Positions 1 through 61,400 of a stretch of 64,000 nt of DNA are shown in pieces. The notes under the pieces were generated by a model. That model had not been told where the DNA came from, did not search any database, and saw nothing but the letters and a program-made list of their open reading frames with translations. The DNA comes from Auanema rhodensis (lineage: Eukaryota; Animalia; Nematoda), in the NCBI GenBank assembly GCA_964057225.1, contig OZ059899.1:11160001-11224000 (forward strand). The letters are read 5' to 3'. How positions within the stretch are numbered: the first letter of the stretch is position 1; every line of letters starts with the position of its first letter. The translations under genes and the position numbers were made by a program.

Positions 1-3000
1 CAACTTTCTACTAGCGAACGCAATCGGGTGTAATGGAGAATTTTTCTCTGCTGATTGCAATAAAACTGCTCCCACAGCGATCATACTGCCATCACTTTCT
101 ATAACAAAAGGTTGGTCTGCTTTAGGAGGTTTCAGTACAGGGGCAGTACACAGTAATGTTTTTAAAGTTTTAAATGCGTCTGCATGTTCCGATTTCCACT
201 CAAAAGGAGTATCCTTATGTGTTAACTTATACAATGGCTCCGCTATTTCGGCATAATTTTGAATAAACCGTCGAAAATAGTTAGTCATACCTAGAAAGGA
301 TCTAACAGCCGTAACTGTACTTAACTTTGGAAATTCGGAAACAGCCTCTATCTTAGCAGGATCTGGTTTAACACCATTTCTACCTATTACAAAACCCAAA
401 AACTTTACTTCAGTGGCTGCAAAGCAGCATTTAGATAACTTAATTTTTAACCCTAGTTCAGTGACCTTTTTCAGCACTTCTTGTATATCTCTTAAATGTT
501 CTTCAGCTGAGTTCGAAATTATTAGCAAATCATCTAGATATACAAACAGTTTGCATCTAACAAGAGATTGCAAGTATCGTACTGCGGATTGAAAAGTGTG
601 TGGCGCTCCACACAATCCCATAGGCATTCGGCAATACTGATAGGTACCTGATGGAGTGGTAAAAGCAGTTAGGTATCTATCTGAGCGTTTCAACGGTATT
701 TGGAAGAAACCAGAAATGAGATCAAAATTCGAAAAGAACTGAGCTCCAGCCGCTAAGTCGATGATATCAGGAATGTGTGGGATGCTGTATGTTTGTTTCT
801 TAGTAACACTATTCAATGCTCTAAAGTCAGTAACGAACCGGAAAGAATTATCTTTCTTTTTCACAAGAACAACCGGACTAGTGAAAGTAGCCGTCGAATT
901 TTCGATTATACCTTGCGACAACATTTCTTTCACTTGCCGTTCTACTTCTTCTTGCTTACCCAATGGTACTCTGTAAGATCTACTTTTTGGAAAATCCATA
1001 TCAGATCTTATAGGAATGGCATGTTCAACTGGTCCGCAAAAGAGACCAATATTATGATCATGGTTGAAAAATGCCGTTTGGTTTTCCTTAATGATTGTGA
1101 TCAGATTTTTCTTCATTTTATGGGACAGAGTGCAAGAATTGAAGTTCAAATCATCCAAAAGATGCTGAGGAAAAGTTGGTAACTTATCTTCCCAATCAGC
1201 TTCAGGTGGAACATAATCGTACATAATTTCTTTAGATGCTATAAGTCCTGAACCAATGTGGTCATTTTTATTAATTTTAATTGGCTTTGAAGAATTGTTT
1301 GATACTACCATAGTAATAGGAAAAGGTCCTATGGCGGCATCTGGAATTGAGATAGGACCTGTGCTAGATTTTAAAAGAGCATATTGATCAAAATCTAATT
1401 CTGGTCCTGTTTGCAAAGATATATGGGAGGTACTGTGTGGTGGAACTGTTACTGTGGACAAACTTATGATATTTACTGTTTTAGTTGTGGTTTTATATGC
1501 AAAACGACCAGGTTTTACCAAAGGTGTTTCCATATTACCAACAATCAACTTGCCTTTACATAGTTTTAATGTAGTAAATATCTCTCTTTCTTCCAACGTA
1601 CGCATAAAATCAGTACCAAGTAACATTTGTCCTGGACAGTCATTGTCTTCAGATATTAAAAATTCGTGTTCCACTTGGTAACCTGCTATACCCACATCTA
1701 ACTTGCATTTTCCCACAAAGCGAAACTCTGATCCATTTGCAGTGGATGCAGATTTAGAATATTTTGTAAAATATTGTCTTCCAATATATGCCAATGTGGA
1801 GAACGGAATATATGAGACCGTAGCTCCAGAATCCCATAATGCTAACAGTCCTCTACCTTCAATGTCAATATGAACAAACGGTAACATGTGTCCATTTTTC
1901 TTTGTTGTTGTGTGACATACAAAAGGTATGGCTAAAGGAATGTAAGTTATGATGGTGGGAAAATAGCTCCGCATCAATTCATCACTAACTGTTTCATGAA
2001 TCTCATCTCCCTCAAGTGGGGGAGCTGTTGGGCTCAACATGATATGGTTTATTTTTAACATAGAAGTAGGGGAGAGATAACATTTTATAGTGAAATATAA
2101 TGCTATCATTAGACATAATATCAGAGTTATACAACCGATGGTAATGAGTGTTCGTTCAATTGAACCTATACAAAAGTCAATGAACAGATCCCAATTGGAG
2201 AAAACAATTTTCCTGGCATCTCTTATAAGTTTACTTCCTTTGAAGATGAAAGAGGAAATTTGAGGCCAATCACGTGAACGAGAAATTACGCGGAGAAGAT
2301 CATGGTGAGGAGAAGTAGATAAACTATAACCATAAGTTAATCCAATAGATAGGGCTAAGGATTTTTCAGTCGAATTTTCAAACAAATTCCGCCCTGTGAA
2401 TCGAAGTTTACTCAATTCAGCATAATGATCATGTTTTTCTGAATGAATACTATCTACTTTATGTGTGTCACCTTTATAATCTCTCCATGTTCCATTTTCA
2501 TACCAAATCTCTGTCTCTTTGTGTTCACAATTGATCTCATGTCCTTCAGTGCTCAAATCGTAGCTATCGATAGGAGCAAAGAATAATTGTTTATCGTGTG
2601 TTAAAACAGGGGTCTCTGCATAACATTTATCATTGTAAGAATGATTACGATAAATGAAATGTGGTTCTATTTCCTGACAAGTTGTTATTTTTAAAACATT
2701 TCTTCCAACAAATCGGGCAACGATATCATCCCGCTGAAGCATAGCTCTTACTCCTATTGTAGGATGTATACGTAATATAGCTTGCCAGCTTTTTACAGTT
2801 TCCATTTGAGATTTACAGATGGTATGAAACTGTTGATGAAATTCGTCAATTATGGAGAGACGCGCTTTCTCAAACCCATAATTCAACTTATTATCTATTA
2901 TCGTTTTAGTTTTAAGCTCTGATTTGTGGAGAACATTGTCATATACTTCTGCTACATACAACTCTCGACCTCTCTCGTACGCATTAGGGGTAGGAGTTGT

Positions 3001-14987: not shown

Positions 14988-15061
14988 TGCCGCCAGCAGG
15001 GGTCGAACCTGCGACCTTGGGCTTATTAGACCCACGCTCTAACCGACTGAGCTATGGCGGC
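14988..15061 (-). tRNA. tRNA-Ile (AAT)
   Basis: Consensus copy. Confidence 0.95.
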
Positions 15062-15654
15062 TACGAAAGTACGAAATAACAAAGCGCTGATTATAGGAAA
15101 CGTGAATGAATGCAGATATTCTCAATTCCGATTCATTAACTAGATCGTGGTCAGCATTTTACAACATTGATAAAATAGAAACTGAGAAAAAAACATCAAC
15201 AAATGACACTATTAACTTGGTTTTTTGAACAGCTTTTTTATATTTCTTTTTTCACTATGAGAGAACTTATATTTATTGCTTTTTCAAAATTTTCCATTTT
15301 TAACATTATACATCTTGACTATCACACATTGAGAACAACAGTTGGCAATGTTGGTTGTCACGTCATATTTCATGCAGTTAGATTTTCAGACACATTAATA
15401 CCTTTGACCATTCTTCTTATGAGTTTTGTAACGATAATTCGTAATAGGAAATGAATTGGTATAATATGAAAAAATACAAGACATAGTCAACATTGATTTC
15501 CCCAAATAGTATCATGTTTGCTTGTTATTCAATTAGAACACTTATTTTTTGATTGTTTTCTTGAAATATTCTTTTTTTTTCTTCAACAAAGTTATGACTG
15601 AGATCAAAATTTGAACTTACTTTTGAACAATTAAACAGAAATTTAAAAAATATT

Positions 15655-15728
15655 TGCCGCCAGCAGGGGTCGAACCTGCGACCTTGGGCTTATTAGACCC
15701 ACGCTCTAACCGACTGAGCTATGGCGGC
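15655..15728 (-). tRNA. tRNA-Ile (AAT)
   Basis: Consensus copy. Confidence 0.95.
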
Positions 15729-15835
15729 TACGAAAGTACGAAATAACAAAGCGCTGATTATAGGAAACGTGAATGAATGCAGATATTCTCAATTCCGATT
15801 TATTAACTAGATCGTGGTCAGCATTTTACAACATT

Positions 15836-16216
15836 TGTCACATCTGCAAGCACATGGTAAACATGTGCGCGCTATTCAAATAGCGGGAGCCTGAACAAGC
15901 CCCGCCCACAACATGGGACACACATGGCACTCTTGCTTCTGGCCTAACCCAGATAGGTTGTCTTATAGCCATGTGAGTCTCATCTCTATATCATCTATAT
16001 ATATACTCTATTTAATACTTTTTTAGATCTCTTTATAATCTTTCTTAATGTAATTCTTATATTGTATTTTCTTGTTATCTGATAATGAATCCTTTTCTCT
16101 TTAAGTATTTGTCTTAATAAGGAAATCGGGGCGTTCGGGTCTGCCTACCTAAGGAACAAGGTAGAAGTACATATATCTTCCGACCATGAAAAGACGGGAA
16201 GAAACAATATGTAACG
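15836..16216 (+). repeat. 5' LTR of element B (TGTCACAT...ATGTAACG)
   Basis: Direct repeat of 25578-25958. Confidence 0.97.
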
Positions 16217-16229
16217 TGGAGGTTCCACC
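16217..16229 (+). promoter_or_regulatory. PBS of element B (tRNA-Gln)
   Basis: TGGAGGTTCCACC directly after the 5' LTR. Confidence 0.85.
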
Positions 16230-17368
16230 TTGCTTACTTTACTGTTAATTTATTGACATCAAGTTTACGAGACTTTTGGACTTAATTACCCAACAGTGAG
16301 GAGTAACCGAGCCGTGCACCATGATTTCCCCAAAAATTATTTTGGCTACCACTTCTCCTCCGCTCAACGAAAACTGGGAGGTGTCTGAGACGTTTGGGGA
16401 AACTATCAGACAATAGTTTTGACGAGCGTTACCTTTTTGTTATGCACGCGCGTGCTATTTTGATTCATTACTTTATGATGTGAATGTCCAGTGTGGCAAC
16501 AGAGCTCACTTTTTAGCTGAGTTGTTTGGAAGCTGGAGGCTGTTGGGATAATTTTATTTACGATTTTTGATTTTGATTCACATCCAAGGGTTCATCAGGG
16601 TTCTACTCCTGTTAACTCTTTTCTTATTAGTTCAGAGATAATAAGAATATTTAAATTCCTACCCACCCAAGTCCACTCTACGTCTGCCAACGTTTCCTTT
16701 TTCCTATATTATTGACAGATTACTGAATTTAAATTCCTATATCAATCTTAAATTACCTTCTAAATCTTTTGAAATTAAATTAAAAATTATCTTAATTAAG
16801 ATTTATTTTGAAATTCTTTCTACAAATCTTAATAAACTTTATAAAATTGAACTTAATATACGAGATGAGACATTTTTGTTTACTTTAAGCTTACTCACAT
16901 TCAAATAGTTGGCCCACGCGTACCAGCTGTTCGACATGTGTAGTCAATAACAGCTGTTAAAATTCAAAAGTTTTCAAACAGGCTTAAGGCACCATCTGTG
17001 ATTCCTTATTTGTCTCTAAGCTGACATTAGTGATTATAATATTCAAATATCACGACAGACGGTCAATGGTTGTTTACCATAAGCGCTAACATCTGGTGTC
17101 GTGACACATGGCTGGAGGCGGAGCTTGAAGCTTCAACGATCCTCCTTCATCAGACGCCATTGTCACAAACGTTTTTACTGGAGTCTAGTTGCTTCCAGTA
17201 CGCGCTCTTATATTCATCTAACTGTATTCACCAGCCACCCTGTCGGACTCGGACATCAGCGAGGAAAACAAAGATCAGGAACAAGGATCACCAGAGGTAC
17301 GCCAAGTTTTTGAATTTAATTCTAAAAACTTAAATACTCCATCCACCTACCTCTCTCCTTTTGAATTT

Positions 17369-20300
17369 TTGAGAGAAGAAGGTGATTCCTCTTCTTCTTC
17401 TCACTCTTCTTCTCTAACAATTAGAACGAGAAGTAAAAGCAGAAAGGCCATCACTGAGGAAACACCTCGGGCACCTACTACAGTACGAAATAGATCACCA
17501 AGTCGGTGGGCCGCTGCTATAACTAAAGCTTTTGAAAGAAAAATGACTCCTACCTCTCCATCTCCTAATTCTAATGTTGCTCCACCCTCTAGAAATATGG
17601 CAACTATTTTGAATTGTCATCTCTGTCCCAGGTATGACGGCTCTCGTAGCTTTCGTTCTTTTGTTGAATCTTTAAATAGAATTTTTAATGTTATGAATCT
17701 AAGCTTACCTGAGAGACTATTAATTTTGCCTCTTCTTTTGGAATCAAATGAAACAGCTCTCTCCTTGTATAATAGTATTCCTAGTGGCATAAGAACTAAT
17801 GGCCCATGGATTGTTTTGATGGATCAGCTCACTGAGCTTTTAGCGCCTAAAACAGATAAAAATTTCACCATAGCGCTTATTCATCGAATACAACAAGGAG
17901 ATAAATCTGTTCTCGATTTTAGTATGGAATTAGAGAGAATGGCAAGCACCATAATGTCACCAATGGATCCCGAGCGGGAACCAATGTTGAAAACGGCATT
18001 TTTAAATGGTTTAAAAGAGGAACTGGGTATTGCGGTTTTAACTAAAAACCCCGCCACTTATGAACAAGCTAAGAAATTAGCTAGGTTTGAAGAAGGCGTT
18101 CGGAATAGCTTCATGAAAAGAAATGAAGACACCAGCACCTTGAAGGAGCTCATAAATGCTTTACAACATAAATTAAGCTTTAGTGAAGAAAGAGAAAGAA
18201 GTAGGAATAATAATAATAATAAAAATTATAAAAATAATAAAAATAATAAAAAAAATAATAACTGGACTCAGCACAATAATGGCTCTAATGATTATGAGCG
18301 AGAGAGAGAGCGACCTTCTGCCGTACGTTATAATAATAATAACTCGCAGAACGGGAATATGAATAGGCGTCCTAACCCGGGAAACCGCCCATTTGCCAAT
18401 GGCAGAAATGCCAATAGCTCGTCTTGGAACCCTAGGCCTAGTTCCCCAAGAAGACAAAGACCATCAGCCAATGGGAATGGTAACTCAAGGGTATACAGCG
18501 TAGCGACCCCATTCATGCCACCGGTCACGTTGTGCCTGACTTTATTGGCACTCTCATGCCTTCCCTTTGGGTCGGCAAAATATCAGATTTGCGCTCAATC
18601 TGAAGGGGGTATATTAGTAACACCTCCTGTGGTCACAGGCTGCCATAAGGCAGAAATTGAAAAGGCTCACAGTGTTGAGGTAGAAATATATCTACCAAAG
18701 GCTGAGATAGAGTCATGGGAAGCATGGAAATGCTATGTGAAAAAGTATAAAAGCTGTGTGAGAGATTTCATGTTTTTGAGAGATCGTAACACCACATTCT
18801 CTCATATTGAAACAGTAGATAAGAAAGATTGTGTTCGAGCACATAGAAATCGTATGTGGAATGATAAAATCATGAATGCCCAACAGCATTCAGTTTTTGA
18901 AACACCATTAAACGAGCATAATCCAACTCGCTCTTGGTCCACTGAAGAATGTGTAGAAATTGAACAATTTGTATTGAAGCGAGGGATAATAACTAGATTG
19001 AAAGAAGATCACATTGTATCAGACTTATTTATAAATACTGATAATTGTAAAGGAAATGAAGGGTTTTGTGCAACTGGTGAAGGTGCAGTTATCTGGCAAC
19101 CACCTATCCCATCAGTTGTCTGTCACTATCAAAAACTTGGCCCCTTCTCCGCCATGTTGGGTGATCATATTCTTCTAGTTCACTCTATTGAAAGCGCTTT
19201 TGTTCTCCAAAATCATTCCACATCCGCTCACGTTCAATCTTGTTTCGAATTCGCTGTTTTTGAATCATCTTCTGAGGCAATTATCCGATTCACAGCATAT
19301 CCCCGTGTTTATAATTTGCTTGATCTTTCCAATACTTTGCTTAATGCTGATAGACGCAGAAATAAACGTAATGCATTACCTCAAAAACATCGCTCTTTCA
19401 GTGATGATTATCTTTTTGTTAATGCGAAATCCCAACCATATGCGTTTCCATTTCTAAGACCTACTTTCATTTTTGGATCTGCATCTATCACTAAGTTTTA
19501 CGCAAAATATATGAGATATGCAGCTACATCATCTTATGAGAGTTTGCTCCAATTCGCGATAGATAATCCACTGTTCATTGACACAATTGTTAGTTTAGGA
19601 TTGACAAAAGATCACATAACTAACTGGGCGAAGTCTAATAATTTCAAAGATCCCAATCTTTTGATTTTACAATGTATGGGTATAGAGGAAATTAAACTGG
19701 CTACTAGACAGGTGATTAATAGCATGAAATTGGATGATCTTATCACTCAAGTAGCTCGTCGTATAGAAGTTCCTCGGTTAAAAAGATCGTTGATGAAATC
19801 TACAACATCCATAGAAGACTTCTTTCGAGGAATGGCTCACGCAGTAGTATATCAAGCCACAATTCTTGATGGTACACAAACAGTTCCATCAATCGAACAG
19901 TTGGCAAGAGCCTTATATCCATCTATATTACCACGCAGTGGAAATATGAATCAATCTGAAATTATTGCAACTGCTCAAGGCATGTTATTCATGATCCGAC
20001 AACAATCGGGAAAAGAACAAATATCTCGTGACATGCAAGTCAGTCGACAACAAAAAGCTGATGCTACTGTTAGAAACAACCAAGAGCAAGATTTAGCAAT
20101 TATATCCAAGCTGCCTGACTATCACAACCTTTATACAAAGAATAGTACAGCATATTATGGATTTCCTCCACAGTCCATCGAATACCCACAGGAAAATCCT
20201 AAATTCAATAAAACAGAAGTTTTAGAATTTATAAGTTGGGTTAAAACTCAAATCACAACTGATAAAAATATGGTACAGCATACTACTGTAACCCCAATAA

Positions 20301-23300
20301 CTGCCACCAAAACTACAATTCGTAGTTTAACAACTCCTACCCCTAATGCGTACGAGAGAGGTCGAGAGTTGTATGTAGCAGAAGTATATGACAATGTTCT
20401 CCACAAATCAGAGCTTAAAACTAAAACGATAATAGATAATAAGTTGAATTATGGGTTTGAGAAAGCGCGTCTCTCCATAATTGACGAATTTCATCAACAG
20501 TTTCATACCATCTGTAAATCTCAAATGGAAACTGTAAAAAGCTGGCAAGCTATATTACGTATACATCCTACAATAGGAGTAAGAGCTATGCTTCAGCGGG
20601 ATGATATCGTTGCCCGATTTGTTGGAAGAAATGTTTTAAAAATAACAACTTGTCAGGAAATAGAACCACATTTCATTTATCGTAATCATTCTTACAATGA
20701 TAAATGTTATGCAGAGACCCCTGTTTTAACACACGATAAACAATTATTCTTTGCTCCTATCGATAGCTACGATTTGAGCACTGAAGGACATGAGATCAAT
20801 TGTGAACACAAAGAGACAGAAATTTGGTATGAAAATGGAACATGGAGAGATTATAAAGGTGACACACATAAAGTAGATAGTATTCATTCAGAAAAACATG
20901 ATCATTATGCTGAATTGAGTAAACTTCGATTCACAGGGCGGAATTTGTTTGAAAATTCGACTGAAAAATCCTTAGCCCTATCTATTGGATTAACTTATGG
21001 TTATAGTTTATCTACTTCACCTCACCATGATCTTCTCCGCGTAATTTCTCGTTCACGTGATTGGCCTCAAATTTCCTCTTTCATCTTCAAAGGAAGTAAA
21101 CTTATAAGAGATGCCAGGAAAATTGTTTTCTCCAATTGGGATCTGTTCATTGACTTTTGTATAGGTTCAATTGAACGAACACTCATTACCATCGGTTGTA
21201 TAACTCTGATATTATGTCTAATGATAGCATTATATTTCACTATAAAATGTTATCTCTCCCCTACTTCTATGTTAAAAATAAACCATATCATGTTGAGCCC
21301 AACAGCTCCACCACTTGAGGGAGATGAGATTCATGAAACAGTTAGTGATGAATTGATGCGGAGCTATTTTCCCACCATAATAACTTACATTCCTTTAGCC
21401 ATACCTTTTGTATGTCACACAACAACAAAGAAAAATGGACACATGTTACCGTTTGTTCATATTGACATTGAAGGTAGAGGACTGTTAGCATTATGGGATT
21501 CTGGAGCTACGGTCTCATATATTCCGTTCTCCACATTGGCATATATTGGAAGACAATATTTTACAAAATATTCTAAATCTGCATCCACTGCAAATGGATC
21601 AGAGTTTCGCTTTGTGGGAAAATGCAAGTTAGATGTGGGTATAGCAGGTTACCAAGTGGAACACGAATTTTTAATATCTGAAGACAATGACTGTCCAGGA
21701 CAAATGTTACTTGGTACCGATTTTATGCGTACGTTGGAAGAAAGAGAGATATTTACTACATCAAAACTATGTAAAGGAAAGTTGATTGTTGGTAATATGG
21801 AAACACCCTTAGTAAAACCTGGTTGTTTTGCATATAAAACCACAACTAAAACAGTAAATATCATAAGTTTGTCCACAGTAACAGTTCCACCACATAGTAC
21901 CTCCCACATATCTTTGCAAACAGGACCAGAATTAGATTTTGATCAATATGCTCTTTTAAAATCTAGCACAGGTCCTATATCAATTCCAGATGCCGCCATA
22001 GGACCTTTTCCTATTACTATGGTAGTATCAAACAATTCTTCAAAGCCAATTAAAATTAATAAAAATGACCACATTGGTTCAGGACTTATAGCATCTAAAG
22101 AAATTATGAACGATTATGTTCCACCTGAAGCTGATTGGGAAGATAAGTTACCAACTTTTCCTCAGCATCTTTTGGATGATTTGAACTTCAATTCTTGCAC
22201 TCTGTCTCATAAAATGAAGAAAAATCTGATCACAATCATTAAGGAAAACCAAACGGCATTTTTCAACCATGATCATAATATTGGTCTCTTTTGCGGACCA
22301 GTTGAACATGCCATTCCTATAAGATCTGATATGGATTTTCCAAAAAGTAGATCTTACAGAGTACCATTGGGTAAGCAAGAAGAAGTAGAACGGCAAGTGA
22401 AAGAAATGTTGTCGCAAGGTATAATCGAAAATTCGACGGCTACTTTCACTAGTCCAGTTGTTCTTGTGAAAAAGAAAGATAATTCTTTCCGGTTCGTTAC
22501 TGACTTTAGAGCATTGAATAGTGTTACTAAGAAACAAACATATAGCATCCCACACATTCCTGATATCATAGACTTAGCGGCTGGAGCTCAGTTCTTTTCG
22601 AATTTTGATCTCATTTCTGGTTTCTTCCAAATACCGTTGAAACGCTCAGATAGATACCTAACTGCTTTTACCACTCCATCAGGTACCTATCAGTATTGCC
22701 GAATGCCTATGGGATTGTGTGGAGCGCCACACACTTTTCAATCCGCAGTACGATACTTGCAATCTCTTGTTAGATGCAAACTGTTTGTATATCTAGATGA
22801 TTTGCTAATAATTTCGAACTCAGCTGAAGAACATTTAAGAGATATACAAGAAGTGCTGAAAAAGGTCACTGAACTAGGGTTAAAAATTAAGTTATCTAAA
22901 TGTTGCTTTGCAGCCACTGAAGTAAAGTTTTTGGGTTTTATAATAGGTAGAAATGGTGTTAAACCAGATCCTGCTAAAATACAGGCTGTTTCCGAATTTC
23001 CAAATCCAAGCACAGTTACGGCTGTCAGATCCTTTCTAGGTATGACTAACTATTTTCGACGGTTTATTCAAAATTATGCCGGAATAGCTGAGCCATTGTA
23101 TAAGTTAACACATAAGGATACTCCTTTTGAGTGGAAATCGGAACATGCAGACGCATTTAAAACTTTAAAAACATTACTGTGTACTGCCCCTGTACTGAAA
23201 CCTCCTAAAGCAGACCAACCTTTTGTTATAGAAAGTGATGGCAGTATGATCGCTGTGGGAGCAGTTTTATTACAATCAGCAGAGAAAAATTCTCCATTAC

Positions 23301-24976
23301 ACCCGATTGCGTTCGCTAGTAGAAAGTTGACTCCAGCGGAACGGAAATATCCTCCTATTGAAGTTGAAGCACTCGGTTTAGTCTTTGCTCTTCAACAATT
23401 CCGTACCTATGTATTAGGAGTACCTACCACAGTTATCACAGATCACCGACCATTAACCAGTTTAATGTCGCGTAAAGATCTCATAGGTAGATTAGCCAAG
23501 TATCAACTAATGATACAAGATTTCAACATAAAGATTGAATATCGTCCTGGCAAATTAAACAGTGTCTGTGATGCTCTCTCCAGGTATATAGGAAACGAAG
23601 CAAATGACAGTCGTCCTACTAAACCAAAGGACAAAGTAAACCCTGTTGATGCTTTTATTGCTCATATCACAACTATTTCTTCTATTGACCAACTAAATTG
23701 TGAAGAAATACGGAAAGTTCAAGCTGGAGTTCCCTGGATTCGCGAAGCACTTTCTCAAATTAATAATGATAACTGTCCGGCTAATATATCAGACCGGTAT
23801 GAAGAACGAGAAGGCATATTACATGCAAAACAAGCGAAAAATTATTTGAAACCATCTATTATTTTGCCTCGTAACGACAAAATAACTGATGTTGTTATCA
23901 AGTTTTTTCATGAAGATTCCAAAATTGGTGCACACCTAGGTATAAATAAAACTACTGATGCGATTCGACGACGATTCTTTTGGACTAATATGGTTCCACA
24001 AATAACTGAATTTATTAATCGTTGTACAAAATGTGCAAGTAGGAAATCTAACCCACACCAATCGTATATTCAACCTATGGGAAGATTTGTTATACCCGAA
24101 AAGCCATTTGATCGTATTCATGTAGATATACTAGGTCCTTTACCTCGCACTAATGATGGACATCGATACATCTTGAGTATTCAAGACGCTTTTAGTAAAT
24201 GGGGAACAACTTGCCCATTAATAACACAAACGGTTACTGAAATCACAAAAGCGTTTGTAATTAGATTTGTTTTCATATATGGACCACCAATGAGTATGAT
24301 AACCGATAATGGTAGTAGCTTTTTGTCATCTGAATTTCAAGCTATGTGTAAACAATTTGGAATTGAACACACTACTACGCTACCATATCATAAAAATGCT
24401 AATGGACAAGTGGAGAGACTTCATAGAACTTTAGAAGAAGCTCTCTCTTCATTCGTGAATGAACAACAAACTAACTGGGATATACACCTACCTAAAGTTA
24501 TGTTTGCGATCAATACGTTACCATACTCATCAACATCTATTAGTCCATATGTTGTATTATTTGGTCGGGATGCAAGACTTCCTATTGATCATCAATTGCC
24601 TGGAAATAATCTTCAAACTGAAGAACCAGCCAATCCTACAGAAGATTTTGTCAATAGATCGCTAATACAAAATGAAAGCACATCTAATATAGTAAAAGAT
24701 AGAATTGAAACATGCACAAAGAAGAATGAACAACGGTACAATACACGAAATAGAACACAAAATAAAGAAATTCAGGTTAATGACTTAGTTATGATAAAAG
24801 TGAATTCTACTCGAAACAAACTAACACCTTCATTCGAAGGGCCTTATTTAGTTACAGCAGTTCAAAGATCTTTCGTCGTGGTTCAAACAGATAAAGGAAA
24901 AAGCAGAAGAGTACACAAGGACTTCGTCAAACCTTACCAACGGACAACATCTATTCCGGTTATCACAATTTCTTGA
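17369..24976 (+). CDS. Gag-Env-Pol polyprotein (Gag, signal peptide, class III-like glycoprotein, TM, aspartic protease, RT, RNase H, integrase); true start uncertain
   Basis: Gag-like CPRYDG..F core; signal ~18515-18577; furin-type RRRNKR 19352-19369; TM ~21182-21244; LWDSGA (D at 21497); YLDD 22790-22801; IESDGS (RNase H); HHCC plus HVD/TDNG/ERLHR (integrase); GPY motif. Confidence 0.95.
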   Translation: MREEGDSSSSSHSSSLTIRTRSKSRKAITEETPRAPTTVRNRSPSRWAAAITKAFERKMTPTSPSPNSNVAPPSRNMATILNCHLCPRYDGSRSFRSFVESLNRIFNVMNLSLPERLLILPLLLESNETALSLYNSIPSGIRTNGPWIVLMDQLTELLAPKTDKNFTIALIHRIQQGDKSVLDFSMELERMASTIMSPMDPEREPMLKTAFLNGLKEELGIAVLTKNPATYEQAKKLARFEEGVRNSFMKRNEDTSTLKELINALQHKLSFSEERERSRNNNNNKNYKNNKNNKKNNNWTQHNNGSNDYERERERPSAVRYNNNNSQNGNMNRRPNPGNRPFANGRNANSSSWNPRPSSPRRQRPSANGNGNSRVYSVATPFMPPVTLCLTLLALSCLPFGSAKYQICAQSEGGILVTPPVVTGCHKAEIEKAHSVEVEIYLPKAEIESWEAWKCYVKKYKSCVRDFMFLRDRNTTFSHIETVDKKDCVRAHRNRMWNDKIMNAQQHSVFETPLNEHNPTRSWSTEECVEIEQFVLKRGIITRLKEDHIVSDLFINTDNCKGNEGFCATGEGAVIWQPPIPSVVCHYQKLGPFSAMLGDHILLVHSIESAFVLQNHSTSAHVQSCFEFAVFESSSEAIIRFTAYPRVYNLLDLSNTLLNADRRRNKRNALPQKHRSFSDDYLFVNAKSQPYAFPFLRPTFIFGSASITKFYAKYMRYAATSSYESLLQFAIDNPLFIDTIVSLGLTKDHITNWAKSNNFKDPNLLILQCMGIEEIKLATRQVINSMKLDDLITQVARRIEVPRLKRSLMKSTTSIEDFFRGMAHAVVYQATILDGTQTVPSIEQLARALYPSILPRSGNMNQSEIIATAQGMLFMIRQQSGKEQISRDMQVSRQQKADATVRNNQEQDLAIISKLPDYHNLYTKNSTAYYGFPPQSIEYPQENPKFNKTEVLEFISWVKTQITTDKNMVQHTTVTPITATKTTIRSLTTPTPNAYERGRELYVAEVYDNVLHKSELKTKTIIDNKLNYGFEKARLSIIDEFHQQFHTICKSQMETVKSWQAILRIHPTIGVRAMLQRDDIVARFVGRNVLKITTCQEIEPHFIYRNHSYNDKCYAETPVLTHDKQLFFAPIDSYDLSTEGHEINCEHKETEIWYENGTWRDYKGDTHKVDSIHSEKHDHYAELSKLRFTGRNLFENSTEKSLALSIGLTYGYSLSTSPHHDLLRVISRSRDWPQISSFIFKGSKLIRDARKIVFSNWDLFIDFCIGSIERTLITIGCITLILCLMIALYFTIKCYLSPTSMLKINHIMLSPTAPPLEGDEIHETVSDELMRSYFPTIITYIPLAIPFVCHTTTKKNGHMLPFVHIDIEGRGLLALWDSGATVSYIPFSTLAYIGRQYFTKYSKSASTANGSEFRFVGKCKLDVGIAGYQVEHEFLISEDNDCPGQMLLGTDFMRTLEEREIFTTSKLCKGKLIVGNMETPLVKPGCFAYKTTTKTVNIISLSTVTVPPHSTSHISLQTGPELDFDQYALLKSSTGPISIPDAAIGPFPITMVVSNNSSKPIKINKNDHIGSGLIASKEIMNDYVPPEADWEDKLPTFPQHLLDDLNFNSCTLSHKMKKNLITIIKENQTAFFNHDHNIGLFCGPVEHAIPIRSDMDFPKSRSYRVPLGKQEEVERQVKEMLSQGIIENSTATFTSPVVLVKKKDNSFRFVTDFRALNSVTKKQTYSIPHIPDIIDLAAGAQFFSNFDLISGFFQIPLKRSDRYLTAFTTPSGTYQYCRMPMGLCGAPHTFQSAVRYLQSLVRCKLFVYLDDLLIISNSAEEHLRDIQEVLKKVTELGLKIKLSKCCFAATEVKFLGFIIGRNGVKPDPAKIQAVSEFPNPSTVTAVRSFLGMTNYFRRFIQNYAGIAEPLYKLTHKDTPFEWKSEHADAFKTLKTLLCTAPVLKPPKADQPFVIESDGSMIAVGAVLLQSAEKNSPLHPIAFASRKLTPAERKYPPIEVEALGLVFALQQFRTYVLGVPTTVITDHRPLTSLMSRKDLIGRLAKYQLMIQDFNIKIEYRPGKLNSVCDALSRYIGNEANDSRPTKPKDKVNPVDAFIAHITTISSIDQLNCEEIRKVQAGVPWIREALSQINNDNCPANISDRYEEREGILHAKQAKNYLKPSIILPRNDKITDVVIKFFHEDSKIGAHLGINKTTDAIRRRFFWTNMVPQITEFINRCTKCASRKSNPHQSYIQPMGRFVIPEKPFDRIHVDILGPLPRTNDGHRYILSIQDAFSKWGTTCPLITQTVTEITKAFVIRFVFIYGPPMSMITDNGSSFLSSEFQAMCKQFGIEHTTTLPYHKNANGQVERLHRTLEEALSSFVNEQQTNWDIHLPKVMFAINTLPYSSTSISPYVVLFGRDARLPIDHQLPGNNLQTEEPANPTEDFVNRSLIQNESTSNIVKDRIETCTKKNEQRYNTRNRTQNKEIQVNDLVMIKVNSTRNKLTPSFEGPYLVTAVQRSFVVVQTDKGKSRRVHKDFVKPYQRTTSIPVITIS

Positions 24977-25565
24977 AGGTAGTTTTTTTTTAACAAAATC
25001 AAATTGTTGAAATTTTTTTTATTTTATTTTGTGCCATTTCTGATTGTACCACTTCTTTGTTGTTGATTGATTTTCTCTGAGAAGTCTGCTATTGTTTTAC
25101 AAAAGTTTGTTTTATTACTCCAACTCTCATTGAGTAGATTTTTTTTCAACATTCTCTTGTGAATCTTGCTATTTTTTATGCTTAATCATTACTTGTATTC
25201 ACCTTATGGACATTAGTCATACGGGTTAAACGAGTTTTCATTTTTTTGTACAGAACGGGCTCGACCTATTCTCAGGGTAACACCGTACCTGTACAACTCG
25301 AGAAAATGAACAACTATATCACAGTCGAATGGTTTAGAAGCAAAGCTCTCGTTTGCAAGCATTTCACTACTCAAGTGAATGGAATAGAATCTACTCGATA
25401 CTACATTTCGAATTCAACAAACTTGAAGAGACAATAGCTAAACTTTCAAATCGTATTGTATACACTTTTTTTTTATCCACTACACCATGATTTTTTTCCA
25501 ACACCCAACTATCTTAAAAAGTGAATTAATTTATTTTGTTTTTGAACGAGGACGTTCAACTTTTT

Positions 25566-25577
25566 AAGGTGGGGGGA
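25566..25577 (+). promoter_or_regulatory. Polypurine tract of element B
   Basis: AAGGTGGGGGGA directly before the 3' LTR. Confidence 0.85.
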
Positions 25578-25958
25578 TGTCACATCTGCAAGCACATGGT
25601 AAACATGTGCGCGCTATTCAAATAGCGGGAGCCTGAACAAGCCCCGCCCACAACATGGGACACACATGGCACTCTTGCTTCTGGCCTAACCCAGATAGGT
25701 TGTCTTATAGCCATGTGAGTCTCATCTCTATATCATCTATATATATACTCTATTTAATACTTTTTTAGATCTCTTTATAATCTTTCTTAATGTAATTCTT
25801 ATATTGTATTTTCTTGTTATCTGATAATGAATCCTTTTCTCTTTAAGTATTTGTCTTAATAAGGAAATCGGGGCGTTCGGGTCTGCCTACCTAAGGAACA
25901 AGGTAGAAGTACATATATCTTCCGACCATGAAAAGACGGGAAGAAACAATATGTAACG
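25578..25958 (+). repeat. 3' LTR of element B
   Basis: No difference from the 5' LTR seen by eye. Confidence 0.97.
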
Positions 25959-26448
25959 CATTGATAAAATAGAAACTGAGAAAAAAACATCAACAAATGA
26001 CACTATTAACTTGGTTTTTTGAACAGCATTTTTATATTTCTTTTTTCACTATGAGAGAACTTATATTTATTGCTTTTTCAAAATTTTCCATTTTTAACAT
26101 TATACATCTTGACTATCACACATTGAGAACAACAGTTGGCAATATTGGTTGTCACGTCATATTTCATGCAGTTAGATTTTCAGACACATTAATACCTTTG
26201 ACCATTCTTCTTATGAGTTTTGTAACGATAGATCGTAATAGGAAATGAATTGGTATAATATGAAAAAATACAAGACATAGTCAAGATTGATTTCCCCAAA
26301 TAGTATCATGTTTGCTTGTTATTCAATTAGAACACTTATTTTTTGATTGTTTTCTTGAAATATTCTTTTTTTTTCTTTAACAAAGTTATGACTGAGATCA
26401 AAATTTGAACTTACTTTTGAACAATTAAACAGAAATTTAAAAAATATT

Positions 26449-26522
26449 TGCCGCCAGCAGGGGTCGACCCTGCGACCTTGGGCTTATTAGACCCACGCTC
26501 TAACCGACTGAGCTATGGCGGC
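26449..26522 (-). tRNA. tRNA-Ile (AAT), T54G B-box variant
   Basis: A>C (plus) at 26468. Confidence 0.75.
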
Positions 26523-27115
26523 TACGAAAGTACGAAATAACAAAGCGCTGATTATAGGAAACGTGAATGAATGCAGATATTCTCAATTCCGATTCATTAA
26601 CTAGATCGTGGTCAGCATTTTACAACATTGATAAAATAGAAACTGAGAAAAAAACATCAACAAATGACACTATTAACTTGGTTTTTTGAACAGCATTTTT
26701 ATATTTCTTTTTTCACTATGAGAGAACTTATATTTATTGCTTTTTCAAAATTTTCCATTTTTAACATTATACATCTTGACTATCACACATTGAGAACAAC
26801 AGTTGGCAATATTGGTTGTCACGTCATATTTCATGCAGTTAGATTTTCAGACACATTAATACCTTTGACCATTCTTCTTATGAGTTTTGTAACGATAGAT
26901 CGTAATAGGAAATGAATTGGTATAATATGAAAAAATACAAGACATAGTCAAGATTGATTTCCCCAAATAGTATCATGTTTGCTTGTTATTCAATTAGAAC
27001 ACTTATTTTTTGATTGTTTTCTTGAAATATTCTTTTTTTTTCTTTAACAAAGTTATGACTGAGATCAAAATTTGAACTTACTTTTGAACAATTAAACAGA
27101 AATTTAAAAAATATT

Positions 27116-27189
27116 TGCCGCCAGCAGGGGTCGAACCTGCGACCTTGGGCTTATTAGACCCACGCTCTAACCGACTGAGCTATGGCGGC
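27116..27189 (-). tRNA. tRNA-Ile (AAT)
   Basis: Consensus copy. Confidence 0.95.
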
Positions 27190-27782
27190 TACGAAAGTAC
27201 GAAATAACAAAGCGCTGATTATAGGAAACGTAAATGAATGCAGATATTCTCAATTCCGATTCATTAACTACATCGTGGTCAGCATTTTACAACATTGATA
27301 AAATAGAAACTGAGAAAAAAACATCAACAAATGACACTATTAACTTGGTTTTTTGAACAGCTTTTTTATATTTCTTTTTTCACTATGAGAGAACTTATAT
27401 TTATTGCTTTTTCAAAATTTTCCATTTTTAACATAATACATCTTGACTATCACACATTGAGAACAACAGTTGGCAATGTTGGTTGTCACGTCATATTTCA
27501 TGCAGTTAGATTTTCAGACACATTAATACCTTTGACCATTCTTCTTATGAGTTTTGTAACGATAGATCGTAATAGGAAATGAATTGGTATAATATGAAAA
27601 AATACAAGACATAGTCAACATTGATTTCCCCAAATAGTATCATGTTTGCTTGTTATTCAATTAGAACACTTATTTTTTGATTGTTTTCTTAAAATATTCT
27701 ATTTTTTTCTTTAACAAAGTTATGACTGAGATCAAAATTTGAACTTACTTTTGAACAATTAAACAGAAATTTAAAAAATATT

Positions 27783-27856
27783 TGCCGCCAGCAGGGGTCG
27801 AACCTGCGACCTTGGGCTTATTAGACCCACGCTCTAACCGACTGAGCTATGGCGGC
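27783..27856 (-). tRNA. tRNA-Ile (AAT)
   Basis: Consensus copy. Confidence 0.95.
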
Positions 27857-28449
27857 TACGAAAGTACGAAATAACAAAGCGCTGATTATAGGAAACGTGA
27901 ATGAATGCAGATATTCTCAATTCCGATTCATTAACTAGATCGTGGTCAGCATTTTACAACATTGATAAAATAGAAACTGAGAAAAAAACATCAACAAATG
28001 ACACTATTAACTTGGTTTTTTGAACAGCTTTTTTATATTTCTTTTTTCACTATGAAAGAACTTATATTTATTGCTTTTTCAAAATTTTCCATTTTTAACA
28101 TTATACATCTTGACTATCACACATTGAGAACAACAGTTGGCAATGTTGGTTGTCACGTCATATTTCATGCAGTTAGATTTTCAGACACATTAATACCTTT
28201 GACCATTCTTCTTATGAGTTTTGTAACGATAATTCGTAATAGGAAATGAATTGGTATAATATGAAAAAATACAAGACATAGTCAACATTGATTTCCCCAA
28301 ATAGTATCATGTTTGCTTGTTATTCAATTAGAACACTTAGTTTTTGATTGTTTTCTTGAAATATTCTTTTTTTTTCTTTAACAAAGTTATGACTGAGATC
28401 AAAATTTGAACTTACTTTTGAACAATTAAACAGAAATTTAAAAAATATT

Positions 28450-28523
28450 TGCCGCCAGCAGGGGTCGAACCTGCGACCTTGGGCTTATTAGACCCACGCT
28501 CTAACCGACTGAGCTATGGCGGC
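28450..28523 (-). tRNA. tRNA-Ile (AAT)
   Basis: Consensus copy. Confidence 0.95.
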
Positions 28524-42078: not shown

Positions 42079-45000
42079 CTCGGTACAAGAGTTTCGTCAA
42101 AATATATCGAACAAAATAGCCCAAGATCATTTACAGTATGCTACTACAATGATCCAAGAGGAATTACAGAAACATTTTGAAGAATCATACGAATCGATTT
42201 GCGAGATACAAAATCGGTATCTGGAATTATGGAAATCAATTCTACAAATTGAACCAACAATCGCAATGCGAACAATACTGGGAAGAGAAGATATAGCCGC
42301 ACGGTTTGTAGGCAATGAAATTTTGCATATACATGTATGCCCTACAGTGCTAGAGAAAACCATTTATCACAATCACACCGTAAATGGCACATGCTATCTC
42401 GAAACCCCAGTCTGGACACAAGACGGACAGTTACTGTTTGCAGCACCCGGATCCAAGGATCTTTTACCTCATGGTAAAGAAATAAGCTGTGATCACGTAC
42501 CAACAGATATCTGGTCTAGCGAAGGTGAATGGAAAGGAATTAATGGGACTGCAGACGTCAATCTTGTATCAATGTGGGACGGACTTCATCACGAAAAAAT
42601 AACACCATTAAAATTCACCGGAGCTCACTTATACACTAATTTATCGTCTCGTGTATACTCAATGACCACAGCCATAGCTTACGGTGCGAGTTTAGCATCG
42701 ATTCGTCAGAATCACGTTCTTCACACAATTCACAATGATCCAAAGATATCAGCTACATTCAGTGTACTAAAAAAAAGTAGCGACTACATATCGAAAGCTC
42801 AAGAATTCACCAAGAGCACATGGAAGTCATTCATCGATACAATTGCAGGAACGATTGAGCGAACACTAATAACAATCGGTGCAATTACATTATTTACCAT
42901 CATACTCTTTGTGATAGGTTTCATTGTAAAGATCTATTTCTTCAAACCAGTAGGCATACCAGTTATGCATATTGCACTCAAAGATCACGACAGTGATCTA
43001 CCAACATACGAAGAAACTTTGGAATTAGTTAGTCATCCGGATCAACCGATTCCAAGACACATAATGAAACAATACTATCCATCAATGCTCACATTCATAC
43101 CAATCGCACTACCATTAGTTTGCTCGATTTCCAAAAAGAAAGATCAAGCACTACCACTTCTATGGATGACTGTTAATGATAGACTGATCCTAACTTTATG
43201 GGACTCAGGTTCGTCCGTCAGTTACATAAGAATATCGACACTACACTACTTAGCTTTGAATGACTTTGTTAAGAAGAATACATTAAGAGCAACAACAGCG
43301 AACGGATCAGAATTTGTATTCATTGGTACTATCGACTTAACCGTCGAAATAGCCGGTTACGAAATCGACCATACATTCTTCATATCAGACGACAAAGACT
43401 GTCCATCGCCAGCGTTGATTGGATTAGATTTCATGAAAACACTTGACTGTCAAAACATTGGCATGAAACTAAGACCATACAAAAGAACACTGGAAATTGG
43501 AAATCATGTAGTACCTTTGGCTAGCGGAATTAACGGGGATATTAACAGGATATCAAAAACTGTTAATTTGATAACCTTGGAGCCGCGGAGTCTACTTCCT
43601 CGACAAGTTTTTAATTTCCAAGTCCAATTAGAGAACCCAATCGGAGAAGACTTAATCGCTATGATTAAACCAAACGACAATACTCCTCTCTCACCTCGAT
43701 ACGACACAGCATTTCGCGATGTTAACTCCATCAATATCCAATTCCGGAACAATTCTAAAGAATTCATAGAAATACCGGCCGGCACTGTGATTGCAGAAGC
43801 CGAAATAGGATCTATACCGGACTATGAAATCTTCTCAACAGAACAACAGTACGACTATATTCCACCAGAAGCAGACTGGGAAGGCAAATTACCTCACTTC
43901 CCTGGTGATTTCATGAAAGAACTTGACCTAAAAGAGGCTGATCTTACGCAACGACAAAAAGACGAACTACGAAACATCATTCGTCAACGTAAGAAGGCAT
44001 TCCTCAATGAAGATAAAAAGATAGGATTGTTCAAAGGACCAGTAGAACACAAGATACCACTACGAACGGATATGGATATGCCAAAGCCACGAATTTCACG
44101 TATACCTCTCGGGAAACAAGAAGAGGTAGAAAGACAAGTCCAAGAAATGCTCGAGCAAGGGATAATAGAACGATCGACATCTTTGTTCAACAGCCCTGTC
44201 GTTCTCGTTAAGAAAAAAGACGAAACATTCCGTTTCGTTACGGATTTCCGAGCCTTAAATAACGTTACAAGAAAACAAACATATGTGATTCCTAACATCT
44301 CTGATATCATTGACTTAGCGGCTGGATCACAATACTTTTCTAATTTTGATCTTGTTTCTGGCTTTTTCCAAATACCATTATTGAAGAAGGATAGACCACT
44401 CACATCCTTTACCACCAATAGTGGGACTTATCAATACAGGAGAATGCCTATGGGATTATGTGGTGCGCCACATACCTTTCAAACAGCCGTGAGATATCTC
44501 CAAAGTAAATGTAAATGCCGACTATTTGTCTATTTGGACGATTTACTAGTCATATCAGACAGCGCAGAACAACACCTCGAAGACATCAAAGAAGTATTAC
44601 TCGCTGTAGAAAGACTAGGATTTAAGATTAAACTCAAGAAATGTTCATTTGCAAGACCAGAAGTGAAATTTCTCGGACTCATTGTCGGAAGAGACGGAGT
44701 TAAGCCCGATCAACAGAAAGTTTCCGCCATCCGCGATTACCCTGCTCCTCAAACACCCACAGGAGTAAGAGCATTCTTAGGAATGGTCGGATTCTTTAGA
44801 AAATTTATTAAAGATTTTGCACATATAGCAAGTCCGCTGTATGACCTTACTAAGCTAGACGCAGACTTCAATTGGACTAGCGAATGTCAACGTTCACTAG
44901 ATAAGCTAAAGGAACGACTAATCGAAGCACCGGTACTGAAACCACCACGATCAGACCGAACTTTCATCATTGAAAGTGATGGCAGCAACATCGCCATAGG

Positions 45001-58400: not shown

Positions 58401-61400
58401 CTGGCGGAACATATGGTAGAATTGGCTTATGCTTAAAGGGTTCACAAGCCGGAATTTCTCCAATTATTGCCTGCCCGATGACTGAATTAGCTTCCATAGC
58501 TATTGTTTCATCGGTATCGTTACGGAACATAACATATACTCCACTGGTATCACGAAACGCAGTTGGATATAATGATTTTAATGCGCTTCCACTATCCCCT
58601 AAGACAACCACTTCGTTAGATTCTAGTGGTTTATCTGTCTTTATTGGGATAGGTGCCTCTTCATCAGGCTTTAATGTTTTTGTTCTTAAATTAATGATAT
58701 TCACAGTTATCTCCGTATGCTTAATAGATTCGTTTCCTATTAATGGGATGGCATTGTTTCCAATCTCCAACCTCTTCTTGGATGGTTTAAGGCTGACGTC
58801 GATGTTTTCGCTGTCAAGCGCTTTCATGAAATCTAGTCCAATTAAAGCGGGAGCAGGACAGTCATGATCGTTTGAGACCAAAAATGTGTGTTCGATCTCG
58901 TAGCCGGCAATTTCAATTACAAGATTTATCTTTCCATAAAATGTGAAAGTGGACTTGTTGGCTGCCATCGCTACTAAATGTCTCTTCTTGACATTTTCGG
59001 CCATGTTCAGATATTTGAGGGTGGAGAGCCTAACATATGACACTGATGAGCCTGAATCCCATAAAGCTAAAATCAGTTTATCTTCAACTGATATATATAT
59101 TAATGGTAACTTTGTTTCCGCTGATGCAATAGAAGCAACAAATGGTATTGCGATTGGAATAAATGTTACTAACGCAGGATAGTATTGCTTCATGATGTTA
59201 TCTGGCATCTGTTGGTCTGGGCGGCTTACAAGTTCCAATGTTTCTTCATAGCCTGGGGGCTCATTATCTATTTCATGGACATGCATTACGGTTAGTGGAG
59301 TGGCTCTGAAGAACCAAAATTTAGCAACAACGAAAAGAATTATTAATACTGCGGCAATCGTGACTATTGATCCTATAAAGATGAGTGTTCTCTCAATTGA
59401 ACCTATTAGAAATTGTTTTACGCTAGTCCAGGCGGAAGTTGTGAACTCAGCTGCTTTAGAGATATAGTCACTGCCCTTTTTCAAAAGATTAAAGGCTGAC
59501 GTAATCTTTGGATCGTTGTGAATAGTATGTAAAACATGGTTCTGTTGTATGGATGCTAAACTTGCTCCATATGCAATAGCTGTTGACATTGAGTAAACTC
59601 TCAATGATAAATTGGTGTATAAGTTAGCGCATGTGAACTTTAAAGGTGTTAATTGGTGGTATTGCGCTTTATCAAAGAGTGATATTGGTTTTACTTCAAC
59701 CGATCCATTTATATTTATCCATTCTCCATTTTGATAGTACACATCTGTTGGTACATGTTCGCAATCTATCTCTTTTCCATGTGTTAATAAGTCTCTTGAT
59801 CCTGGAGCAGCAAAATATAATCTCTCATCTTCTGTTATTACTGGTGTTTCCAAATAGCATGTATCATTGATCTTATGATTATGATAAACAGCTTTAGGTT
59901 GAAGAGGTAAGCATATATGAACATGAACTATATCGCTGCCTACGAAACGGGCTGCAATATCCTCTCTTCCTAAAATAGTCCTCATTGCTATTGTGGGTTC
60001 TATGTGTAAAATAGAACGCCATAGCTCGAGGTATCTATTTTGAATCTCACATATGGATTCATAAGATTCCATAAAACGTTTCTGTAGCTCTTCTTGTATG
60101 AGTGTTGTTGTATATTGTAGATGATCTTGAGCTATTCTGCGAGATACGTTGAGGTTGAATTGTATTTCGTTGTTCACTTTTGACGCTGTATACGTTGCCT
60201 GAGCCTGAATTTCTCTGGTTTCTACGGGTGGAGATGATGTTCTTTGTTTCCTTAAGGTTCGTGACGCCGTGTCAGTGACTGTTGCTAATGTTGTTGGCGA
60301 GAGAGTCGTAGTTATCACGGCTGTTGTCGTGTCAACTATGGTTGTCGTCGGAATCCGAGTCGTATAGCTTATAGTTGTCTCCTGAACTAGTGAAGCGGGT
60401 TTGTCCGTTGTTGTCGTTAATGACAGTCTTCTAGTCAGATAAGGCGGTGTTTCAATATCCTCTAACAGTGGTAAAAATGTTTTTATAAGTAGCTGGCGTG
60501 TATCCGCGCTTGGGGTTTGAATGCGAGGGTGGGGGCCCATCGATATACCGTAGTTAGAATCTTTATCTCGATATAGTTTGTTGGTATCTGGCACATTGAT
60601 TGTTAATTGTCGGAACTTTTCATCATCTACGGCTGCTGCTGTTTTATTTGGCCTTATTACTCGCAATGTCATCAAGTTATGGTATAAGTAAAGTGTATTT
60701 CTAAGTACTATACGCTCATCAGCATTGTCAGTTGTTAAAGTTGGTCGGATAGGCGGCATGTTCACAAAGGATTTTAAAACCTCTTGCCTTGATGGTACCG
60801 ACAGATTGTTTTCAAATATTACCGGTGTATAAGCTAGCTCCATCGCTATGCTTTCGGCTCTTTTGCGGTAGGATCCGTCCTTTTCTAGTAGTTTTTCGTC
60901 AAATTCGTGTGCTGTTAATCTGTCACCTATCTGTTCTAATAATTGTTTTGAGGTTAAATACCGTATAGCGCCGCGAGTGGTTGCTGCCAGTTCCTTTTGC
61001 GCAAGAAAATAAGGTATTGCTTCCTCAGGGTCGTGTATTTCGTATGTTTGAAGGAAACGTTGTATGGATTTATCAGATACGGGACTTCTTAAGAAGAAAT
61101 AAAACTTCTCGGGATGTGCTGAAACCCAATCAATAATTGAATATGAAGGGTTGACAGCTCGTCTGGCCTTTATAAGCGGTATTATCTGATAAATACCAGG
61201 ATTACTCATCACCGGTCGTAAGAAAGGATAAGGACAAATATTTAATATTAAAGTTTCAAAATCTTCCTGTTTTTGTATCCACTCCTTGTTTAATTCAACC
61301 GTGCATTCCGCAATTGCTCTTTTATCTCTTTTCGCCGGAAGTTTCTTATATTCTCTCTCTATTAAAACATGGATATTGGTGTCATTTGGGTACTGTGGTA

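Follow-up and report, generated by a model that had tools for sequence, protein, structure and literature searches.

Whether invertebrate retroelements that carry an env gene leave the cell as enveloped particles is an open question, and such elements have been catalogued only recently. The question is raised by a stretch of 64,000 nucleotides (nt) from the nematode Auanema rhodensis (assembly GCA_964057225.1, contig OZ059899.1, positions 11,160,001 to 11,224,000), here called the window, which contains four large retroelement copies, A, B, C and D. The elements are nematode GAG-ENV-POL elements of the Ty3/gypsy-like type, an arrangement which has already been published (PMC13524379). In the copies studied here the putatively cytosolic tail of the envelope protein (Env) carries a tetrapeptide of the type through which the endosomal sorting complexes that are required for transport (ESCRT) are engaged: P(T/S)AP is a ligand of ESCRT-I, PPxY of Nedd4-like ligases and L/PPxY of WW domains (PMC2958808, PMC6410177). 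These peptides, called late domains, are functionally interchangeable according to abstracts in the late-domain literature. An earlier reading of the window, made from the letters alone (the sequence-only reading), proposed that interchangeable late domains in the Env tail reflect selection for budding. Judged from the sequences, there is good support for an ESCRT motif of late-domain-like character in the Env tail. That the tail motifs of A to D are late domains which recruit the host ESCRT machinery and release enveloped particles is a prediction, and one towards which we lean on balance.

Late-domain-like motifs in the Env tail

The sequence-only reading placed PTAP(P) in A and B, LPTY in C and PPGY in D, about 20 amino acids (aa) past the transmembrane segment. 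The coordinates are exact (Table 1), and the motifs begin 20 (B), 24 (C) and 22 (D) residues after the end of the anchor, which is 66-68 residues ahead of the D-S-G of the protease (PR). PTAP is the sole P[TS]AP in the 2477-aa polyprotein of B, PPGY is the sole PPxY in the 2854-aa polyprotein of D, and the Gag side of B and D contains none of these motifs.

Relatives were collected by searching 1.84 billion cluster representatives with a profile of B, C and D that extends from the Env C-terminus through PR. The search gave 542 proteins at E up to 0.001, and the relatives examined are the best 150 of these 542. Both anchor and PR are spanned by 48 of the 150. Four proteins (P0017, P0040, P0046 and P0092) were set aside because they have no D[ST]G at the expected place, P0022 was left out because the anchor is missing and P0097 because it has the same tail as P0013; the 42 tails which remain are cluster representatives at 50% identity. 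Expected numbers were taken from 2000 composition-preserving shuffles and, for P[TS]AP, also from its density in the remaining parts of these proteins. Eight of the 42 tails have P[TS]AP, to be compared with 0.18 expected by shuffling and a maximum of 2 in the 2000 shuffles. Outside the tails the motif occurs 4 times in 57,795 aa, a density which leads to an expectation of 0.28 (Poisson p 6.5e-10). The motif is also present in 4 of 23 partial or atypical tails (P0032, P0040, P0088 and P0138), a set which includes the four proteins set aside for D[ST]G. Near-misses at the place of the motif are PVAP in P0017, PMAP in P0092, ASAP in P0093 and SSAP in P0084. PPGY stands at the same place in P0046, which belongs to another lineage, and P0053 has PPMY, but inside the hydrophobic box discussed below. 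Homologue searches with region 1000-1420 of B (near length) and with a piece of the D tail (longer proteins) gave no match, and an alignment-based search at near length returned P0040 again and nothing else.

The simplest explanation of such short motifs would be that they have arisen by chance in a proline-containing linker, and it is true that most relatives are without them. Chance would, however, have to produce the eight tails against the shuffled expectation, to place the motifs in a fixed alignment column, and to do so once per whole polyprotein. We disfavour this explanation and give it hardly any credence.

Among the relatives P[TS]AP is kept at a fixed position beyond what composition accounts for. 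When B, C and D were aligned with 16 relatives in MAFFT (19 tails), one column brought together the P[TS]AP of B, P0009, P0029, P0043, P0047, P0072 and P0077 with the [PL]PxY found in C, D and P0012, so that 6 of the 16 aligned relatives have P[TS]AP in the column of B. It should be noted that a three-sequence MAFFT alignment sets the PTAP of B 3-4 columns ahead of the [PL]PxY in C and D, whereas the 19-sequence alignment puts them in the same column. A hydrophobic-N-x-hydrophobic box which the tails share stands a few residues before this column, and acidic residues come after it. The flanks of the motif-bearing tails (+/-14 residues) are 8.6% identical pairwise, a value which shows only the absence of near-copies since the rows were chosen for having the motif.

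These data also bear on the proposal that the stretch of P[TS]AP and acidic residues is unrelated to ESCRT, and that it is a recognition site for the protease, a spacer for the timing of PR activation like a transframe peptide, or a ligand for some other proline-binding domain. The stretch does lie directly upstream of PR, and the conserved boxes on either side of it (hydrophobic-N-x-hydrophobic on one, [YF][IVM]P on the other) are both possible processing sites. A protease site is, however, not expected to give way to PPxY in a sister lineage, and the only common ground of PTAP and PPxY is that both lead to ESCRT. Furthermore, the four defining positions of P[TS]AP are kept between flanks of such low identity. 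The proposal is in our judgement improbable.

The relationship between the motif classes was analyzed in a tree of 45 rows built from the Env C-terminus and PR with the tail excluded (quick IQ-TREE). B, with PTAP, is the sister of C, D and P0012, which form the PPxY class (SH-aLRT 98); the claim of the sequence-only reading that motif classes have been exchanged at the same position is thereby borne out. Next outside this group are P0009 and P0066 with PTAP and P0006 and P0013 with no motif. The PPxY class consists of one clade, made up of D, C (as LPTY) and P0012, and in addition P0046. P0012 is a fragment with PPQY from Auanema sp. and the nearest relative of C and D among the matches listed. 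Twenty relatives were looked up; 16 have an organism name, all 16 are nematodes, from Rhabditina and Tylenchina, and the other four are JGI or Logan records. P[TS]AP tails come from Caenorhabditis japonica, Heterorhabditis bacteriophora, Ancylostoma duodenale, Steinernema glaseri, Aphelenchoides avenae, Globodera pallida and Meloidogyne enterolobii/incognita.

Several observations weigh against the motifs being late domains that release particles. None of the motifs is present in 33 of the 45 tails of the tree, including an entire clade of 20 rows. PPxY and LPxY are not enriched family-wide (1 of 42 tails for 0.58 expected by shuffling, and 0 of 42 for 0.82, respectively). On the tree P[TS]AP needs 7 parsimony changes, although well-supported branches require no more than 3 of them, and the P[TS]AP label is no more clustered than in shuffles (59 of 500 were as low); these figures are compatible both with old inheritance followed by losses and with repeated gain. 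The LPTY of C may be a product of decay and not a working variant, C being a defective copy and its motif one codon off PPxY: the first codon of LPTY is CTA, D has CCC at that codon, and the differences are confined to this one codon. Finally, the relatives are automatic gene models, and they are only the top of the list of matches. For the sequence-only interpretation the outcome is therefore mixed: the enrichment of P[TS]AP, the position in the tail, the exchange of classes and the lack of motifs in the Gag of B and D speak for it, but the family-wide enrichment does not extend to PPxY, LPxY or YPx(1-3)L (1, 0 and 2 of the 42 tails), and the Alix-binding motif which it also proposed is dealt with below.

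A different use of the same ligands has to be considered. The motifs could be real ESCRT or Nedd4 ligands which serve trafficking or turnover of Env or of the polyprotein and not the scission of particles, for example by directing the protein, dependent on ubiquitin, into multivesicular bodies or exosomes, or by clearing a fusogenic gB-like protein (gB, herpesvirus glycoprotein B) off the surface of the cell. The enrichment and position data fit this explanation equally well, and tails of membrane proteins are where cellular cargo and adaptors, such as ARRDC1 and Commissureless, carry such motifs. Late-domain-dependent sorting into vesicles is described for E-cadherin (PMC9511404). The Gag side of the relatives fits particle budding better than turnover of Env: P0027 from C. 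brenneri has a PSAP there (aa 365) and P0045 from C. remanei has PSAP and PPNY (aa 331 and 351). These motifs lie 27 (P0027) and about 100-120 (P0045) residues ahead of the first hydrophobic segment, and both proteins belong to the clade without tail motifs. Five proteins combine a tail motif with a Gag side, and P[TS]AP or PPxY is found on the Gag side in 0 of these 5. The pattern hints that the late domain may move between the Gag C-terminus and the Env tail. We consider trafficking or turnover without particle release unlikely, and it should be added that sorting of the chain and budding of a particle may be the same event, since Gag, Env and Pol lie in one chain.

The hydrophobic box and the protease region

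In B, C and D the motif is followed by a hydrophobic box, in which the sequence-only reading had rightly seen YFPTII, YYPSML and YYPALV. It took the shared Y[YF]P-x-[ILM] for a late domain of the YPXnL type, which binds Alix. The sequences of C (YPSML) and D (YPAL) do match YPx(1-3)L, and P0066 has YPPL at the same place. At variance with this, the YFPTII of B is off the consensus, and YPx(1-3)L is not enriched, being found in 2 of the 42 tails where shuffling predicts 2.18. Y[YF]P is restricted to B, C, D and P0012 among the tails examined, and the conserved core is instead [YF][IVM]P, eight residues downstream. This core is found 30-38 aa ahead of D[ST]G in 19 of 45 tails, for about 2 expected from the overall density.

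The same tripeptide marks the junction between PR and reverse transcriptase (RT), which suggests that it defines the two ends of the protease region. The form [YF][IV]PPE[AV] is present at this junction in B, C, D, P0066, P0049 and P0058, and of the 29 proteins with enough length for this comparison 9, with B, C and D among them, have [YF][IVM]P in the PR-RT window. Because like sites flank both ends of the protease region, the [YF][IVM]P sites are suggested to be protease processing sites. In B the box in addition overlaps a sequence resembling a splice acceptor, TTCCTTTAG. From these sequence comparisons the hydrophobic box is more likely to be a processing site of the protease than an Alix motif, and we regard the Alix reading as very improbable. 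The box was also tried as a third membrane span (the hydropathy in D is 2.07) and rejected, for Pol must remain cytosolic and the box is proline-rich. A further box, hydrophobic-x-hydrophobic-N-x-hydrophobic, stands before the P[TS]AP column; it reads KINHIM in B and INNV or INAV in many relatives, and it may be a second processing site.

The acceptor-like sequence in the box lies at the joint of a joined form of element B from which a GT..AG interval is absent (Table 1). The donor is CCAGAG/GTACGC and the acceptor, within the hydrophobic box, TTCCTTTAG/CC, the slash marking the joint. The joined form was found in contigs of three sequencing runs, X12 and X13 (guessed to be RNA) and X1 (guessed to be DNA), and its presence in the last of these means that a DNA version exists, which is either a deletion derivative or a spliced copy that was retrotransposed. 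The joined form is missing Gag, Env and the tail with PTAP, and it would encode PR-Pol alone; the 5' part has no in-frame ATG, and the first ATG in the Pol frame is 24 codons ahead of D-S-G. No such joint was found on D, the tail of which has no read cover in X12-X14 and is hence uninformative.

Structure, proposed mechanism and known systems

An AlphaFold2 model of aa 1190-1419 of B was made from an alignment of 18 rows (mean per-residue confidence score, pLDDT, 78.9). The anchor is a long helix with high pLDDT, and for PR the model gives, with confidence, a beta fold that starts at about aa 1304. Values below 50 are found at aa 1242-1266, which include PTAP, and at aa 1275-1296, which include the hydrophobic box (residues 53-77 and 86-107 of the model). 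According to the model the motif thus lies in a low-confidence and probably disordered stretch. P[TS]AP stands after the anchor and before PR, in what we infer to be a cytosolic segment that is present in particles.

Nematodes possess TSG-101, ALX-1 and WWP-1. The mechanism we propose is that P[TS]AP would bind the UEV domain of nematode TSG-101, and that [PL]PxY would bind the WW domains of Nedd4-family ligases. The polyprotein would be threaded twice through the membrane of the endoplasmic reticulum, with Gag and the tail plus Pol both on the cytosolic side, and assembly would therefore be membrane-bound. The membrane-proximal motif would then bring ESCRT-I or Nedd4 to the neck of the bud, which would be cut and the enveloped particle released. 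The protease would later cleave at the [YF][IVM]P box and leave the motif on an Env tail of roughly 50 aa. A more far-reaching version, which we put forward only tentatively and would not bet on, is that the entire virion proteome is one membrane-threaded chain in which the Env tail and not Gag holds the only late domain and drives ESCRT egress, the motif having persisted, in places with PTAP and PPxY exchanged for each other, since the split of Rhabditina and Tylenchina. If this version is true, the elements have long spread as budding, infectious particles and not as intracellular transposons.

The late domains of retroviral Gag include PTAP in p6 of human immunodeficiency virus type 1, PPPY in Rous sarcoma virus and murine leukemia virus, and YPDL in equine infectious anemia virus. 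The tetrapeptide classes found here are the same (classes in PMC2958808, PMC3874623). As in retroviral Gag, the motifs belong to a structural polyprotein and, in the order of the genes, come shortly upstream of PR, in a segment which is probably disordered and presumably cytosolic, and the classes have been exchanged between related elements. Unlike in retroviral Gag, the motif stands past the Env anchor, and Env is inserted between Gag and Pol in one open reading frame (ORF).

In cells the adaptor ARRDC1 carries a late-domain motif into ESCRT-dependent vesicles. PSAP/PPxY proteins such as E-cadherin likewise have such a motif in a membrane-tethered cytosolic tail, where it drives outward vesicles (PMC9511404). 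These are host proteins, whereas here the motif is in the tail of a retroelement fusogen which runs on into Pol.

Foamy viruses express Pol from a spliced mRNA, which the joined form of B, encoding PR-Pol alone, recalls; the joint in B is known as DNA. Budding of foamy viruses depends on Env as well as on the capsid (PMC3705266). In contrast to the present elements, their late domains are in Gag and their gene order is gag-pol-env. The relation to herpesvirus gB concerns the ectodomain, which matches gB profiles weakly (E 2.7e-5 to 0.36, over about 100 residues, by sequence only). We know of no P[TS]AP late domains in gB tails.

GAG-ENV-POL Ty3/gypsy 'errantiviruses' with a gB-type Env are reported from Nematoda, Bryozoa and Platyhelminthes by Chary and Hayashi (eLife 2026, PMC13524379), who credit Sacco et al. 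2022 (J Gen Virol) for the nematode elements. The elements in the window agree with theirs in gene order, in the gB-type Env between a signal peptide or transmembrane segment and a transmembrane segment, in the nematode hosts and in the multiple copies with near-identical long terminal repeats (LTRs). A search of PMC13524379 for the terms late domain, PTAP, ESCRT and cytoplasmic tail gave no mention of them, Sacco et al. 2022, which is possibly relevant, lying outside the scope of the search. Titles and opening parts of abstracts in the literature on nematode, gypsy and errantivirus elements and on glycoprotein tails likewise gave no report of a late domain in an Env tail, again with supplements and Sacco et al. 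2022 outside the scope. What is new here is the late-domain motif of the Env tail; the element type is published, and late domains and their interchangeability are textbook knowledge.

A conserved motif which switches class is evidence, at the level of the sequence, for selection on ESCRT-dependent release in nematodes, and these elements would offer a natural example of a retroelement whose glycoprotein tail bears a late domain. The finding points to a precise short peptide and to host partners (TSG-101 and Nedd4/WWP-1) that are testable in relatives of C. elegans, and it bears on the assembly of Gag-Env-Pol polyproteins and on a possible horizontal spread between nematodes, parasitic ones included.

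The elements and the satellite array

The coordinates of the features are collected in Table 1.

Table 1. Features of the retroelement copies in the window (positions are those of the window; aa numbers refer to the polyprotein of B)
Feature	Position	Strand	Remark
Copy A	1 to about 7501	-	frame broken into three pieces (frameshifted)
PTAP of copy A	2020..2031	-	frameshifted copy; same motif as B (PTAPP)
Element B, complete	15836..25958	+	5' LTR from 15836, 3' LTR from 25578; inserted in 667-bp satellite
GT..AG interval absent from the joined form of B	17297..21398	+	joint 17294 to 21397, cut +2; 4102 nt skipped
Single ORF of B, 2477 aa (P0001)	17543..24976	+	order Gag, Env, PR, RT, RNase H, integrase (IN)
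Hydrophobic segment 1 of B (aa 328-345)	18524..18577	+	hydropathy scans; between Gag and Env ectodomain
Env ectodomain of B, herpesvirus-gB-like	18578..21181	+	profile match to PDB gB; weak Pfam Glycoprotein_B
Env membrane anchor of B (aa 1214-1232)	21182..21238	+	Kyte-Doolittle mean 2.63 over 19 aa
Putative cytosolic tail of Env and linker to PR in B	21239..21385	+	directly after the anchor; low-pLDDT stretches
PTAPP of B, P[TS]AP late-domain-like motif	21299..21313	+	PTAP is 21299-21310, aa 1253-1256; extra P next
Hydrophobic box of B, YFPTIITYIP	21365..21394	+	holds Y[YF]P and the [YF][IVM]P core (YIP, 21386-21394)
Protease active-site D-S-G of B	21497..21505	+	ORF translation, Pfam
Second Y-V-P of B, PR-RT junction (DYVPPEADWE)	22115..22123	+	same motif in C and D
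Element C	36256-46834	+	LTRs from 36256 and 46535; defective copy
LPTY of C	42998..43009	+	defective copy
Hydrophobic box of C, YYPSMLTFIP	43073..43102	+	sequence
Element D	window edge down to 55435 (ORF)	-	ORF open to window edge; 2854 aa
Hydrophobic box of D, YYPALVTFIP	59155..59184	-	sequence
PPGY of D	59248..59259	-	ORF open from window edge to 55435

The ORF of B has no stop or frameshift between Gag, Env and Pol and, if translated as such, gives Gag, Env and Pol products in the ratio 1:1:1. The tail of Env doubles as the linker to PR within one continuous ORF, a feature which the sequence-only reading did not describe. In searches against Pfam the C-terminal half of B matched gag-asp_proteas, RVT_1, RT_RNaseH, Integrase_H2C2 and rve, and this order of PR, RT, RNase H and IN together with the LTRs of B and C is that of the Ty3/gypsy type. 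Weak matches were obtained to Retrotrans_gag (aa 72-159) and to Glycoprotein_B (aa 966-1057, E 3.9e-4, below the curated cut-off). When a profile of the B and D ectodomains was compared with all PDB sequences, 40 of 40 matches were herpesvirus gB (best E 2.7e-5). The gB-like Env is thus found between Gag and Pol, flanked by a signal or transmembrane segment on one side and a transmembrane segment on the other; by hydropathy B, C and D have two hydrophobic segments with an ectodomain of about 870-910 aa between them. The first segment may be an internal signal or anchor, and a G-S-A before KYQIC would fit a signal-peptidase site. Between B and C or D the protein identity from the Env C-terminus to PR is about 38%, and the DNA identity between C and D is 64-71%. 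Copy A is 99.2% identical to B over 7000 nt, and since A and B are one family the window represents three lineages and not four.

The four copies interrupt a satellite array with a period of 667 bp, which a repeat search and blastn on the 64-kb window resolved into blocks at 7502-15836, 25959-36255, 46887-49651 and 49979-54370. At element B the satellite halts at 15836 and restarts at 25959 with a phase overlap of 5 bases, and the corresponding empty site, joining 15831 to 25959, is present in sequencing run X1. The two LTRs of B are identical (300/300 nt). So are those of C (300/300 nt), despite a frameshift near 42000 and a frame which stops inside IN; this indicates a recent insertion of a defective element, presumably mobilised in trans.

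At 49652-49978 the satellite carries a 327-bp insertion which starts with TG, ends with CA and is bordered on both sides by a duplication of TCCGA. It looks like the solo LTR of a further family, and a second copy was not found within the window. Three element families and this one solo LTR are accordingly gathered in the same satellite array (7502-54370). The phases of insertion within the satellite monomer differ, being about 173, 500, 117, 462 and 238, and the target is therefore not site-specific.

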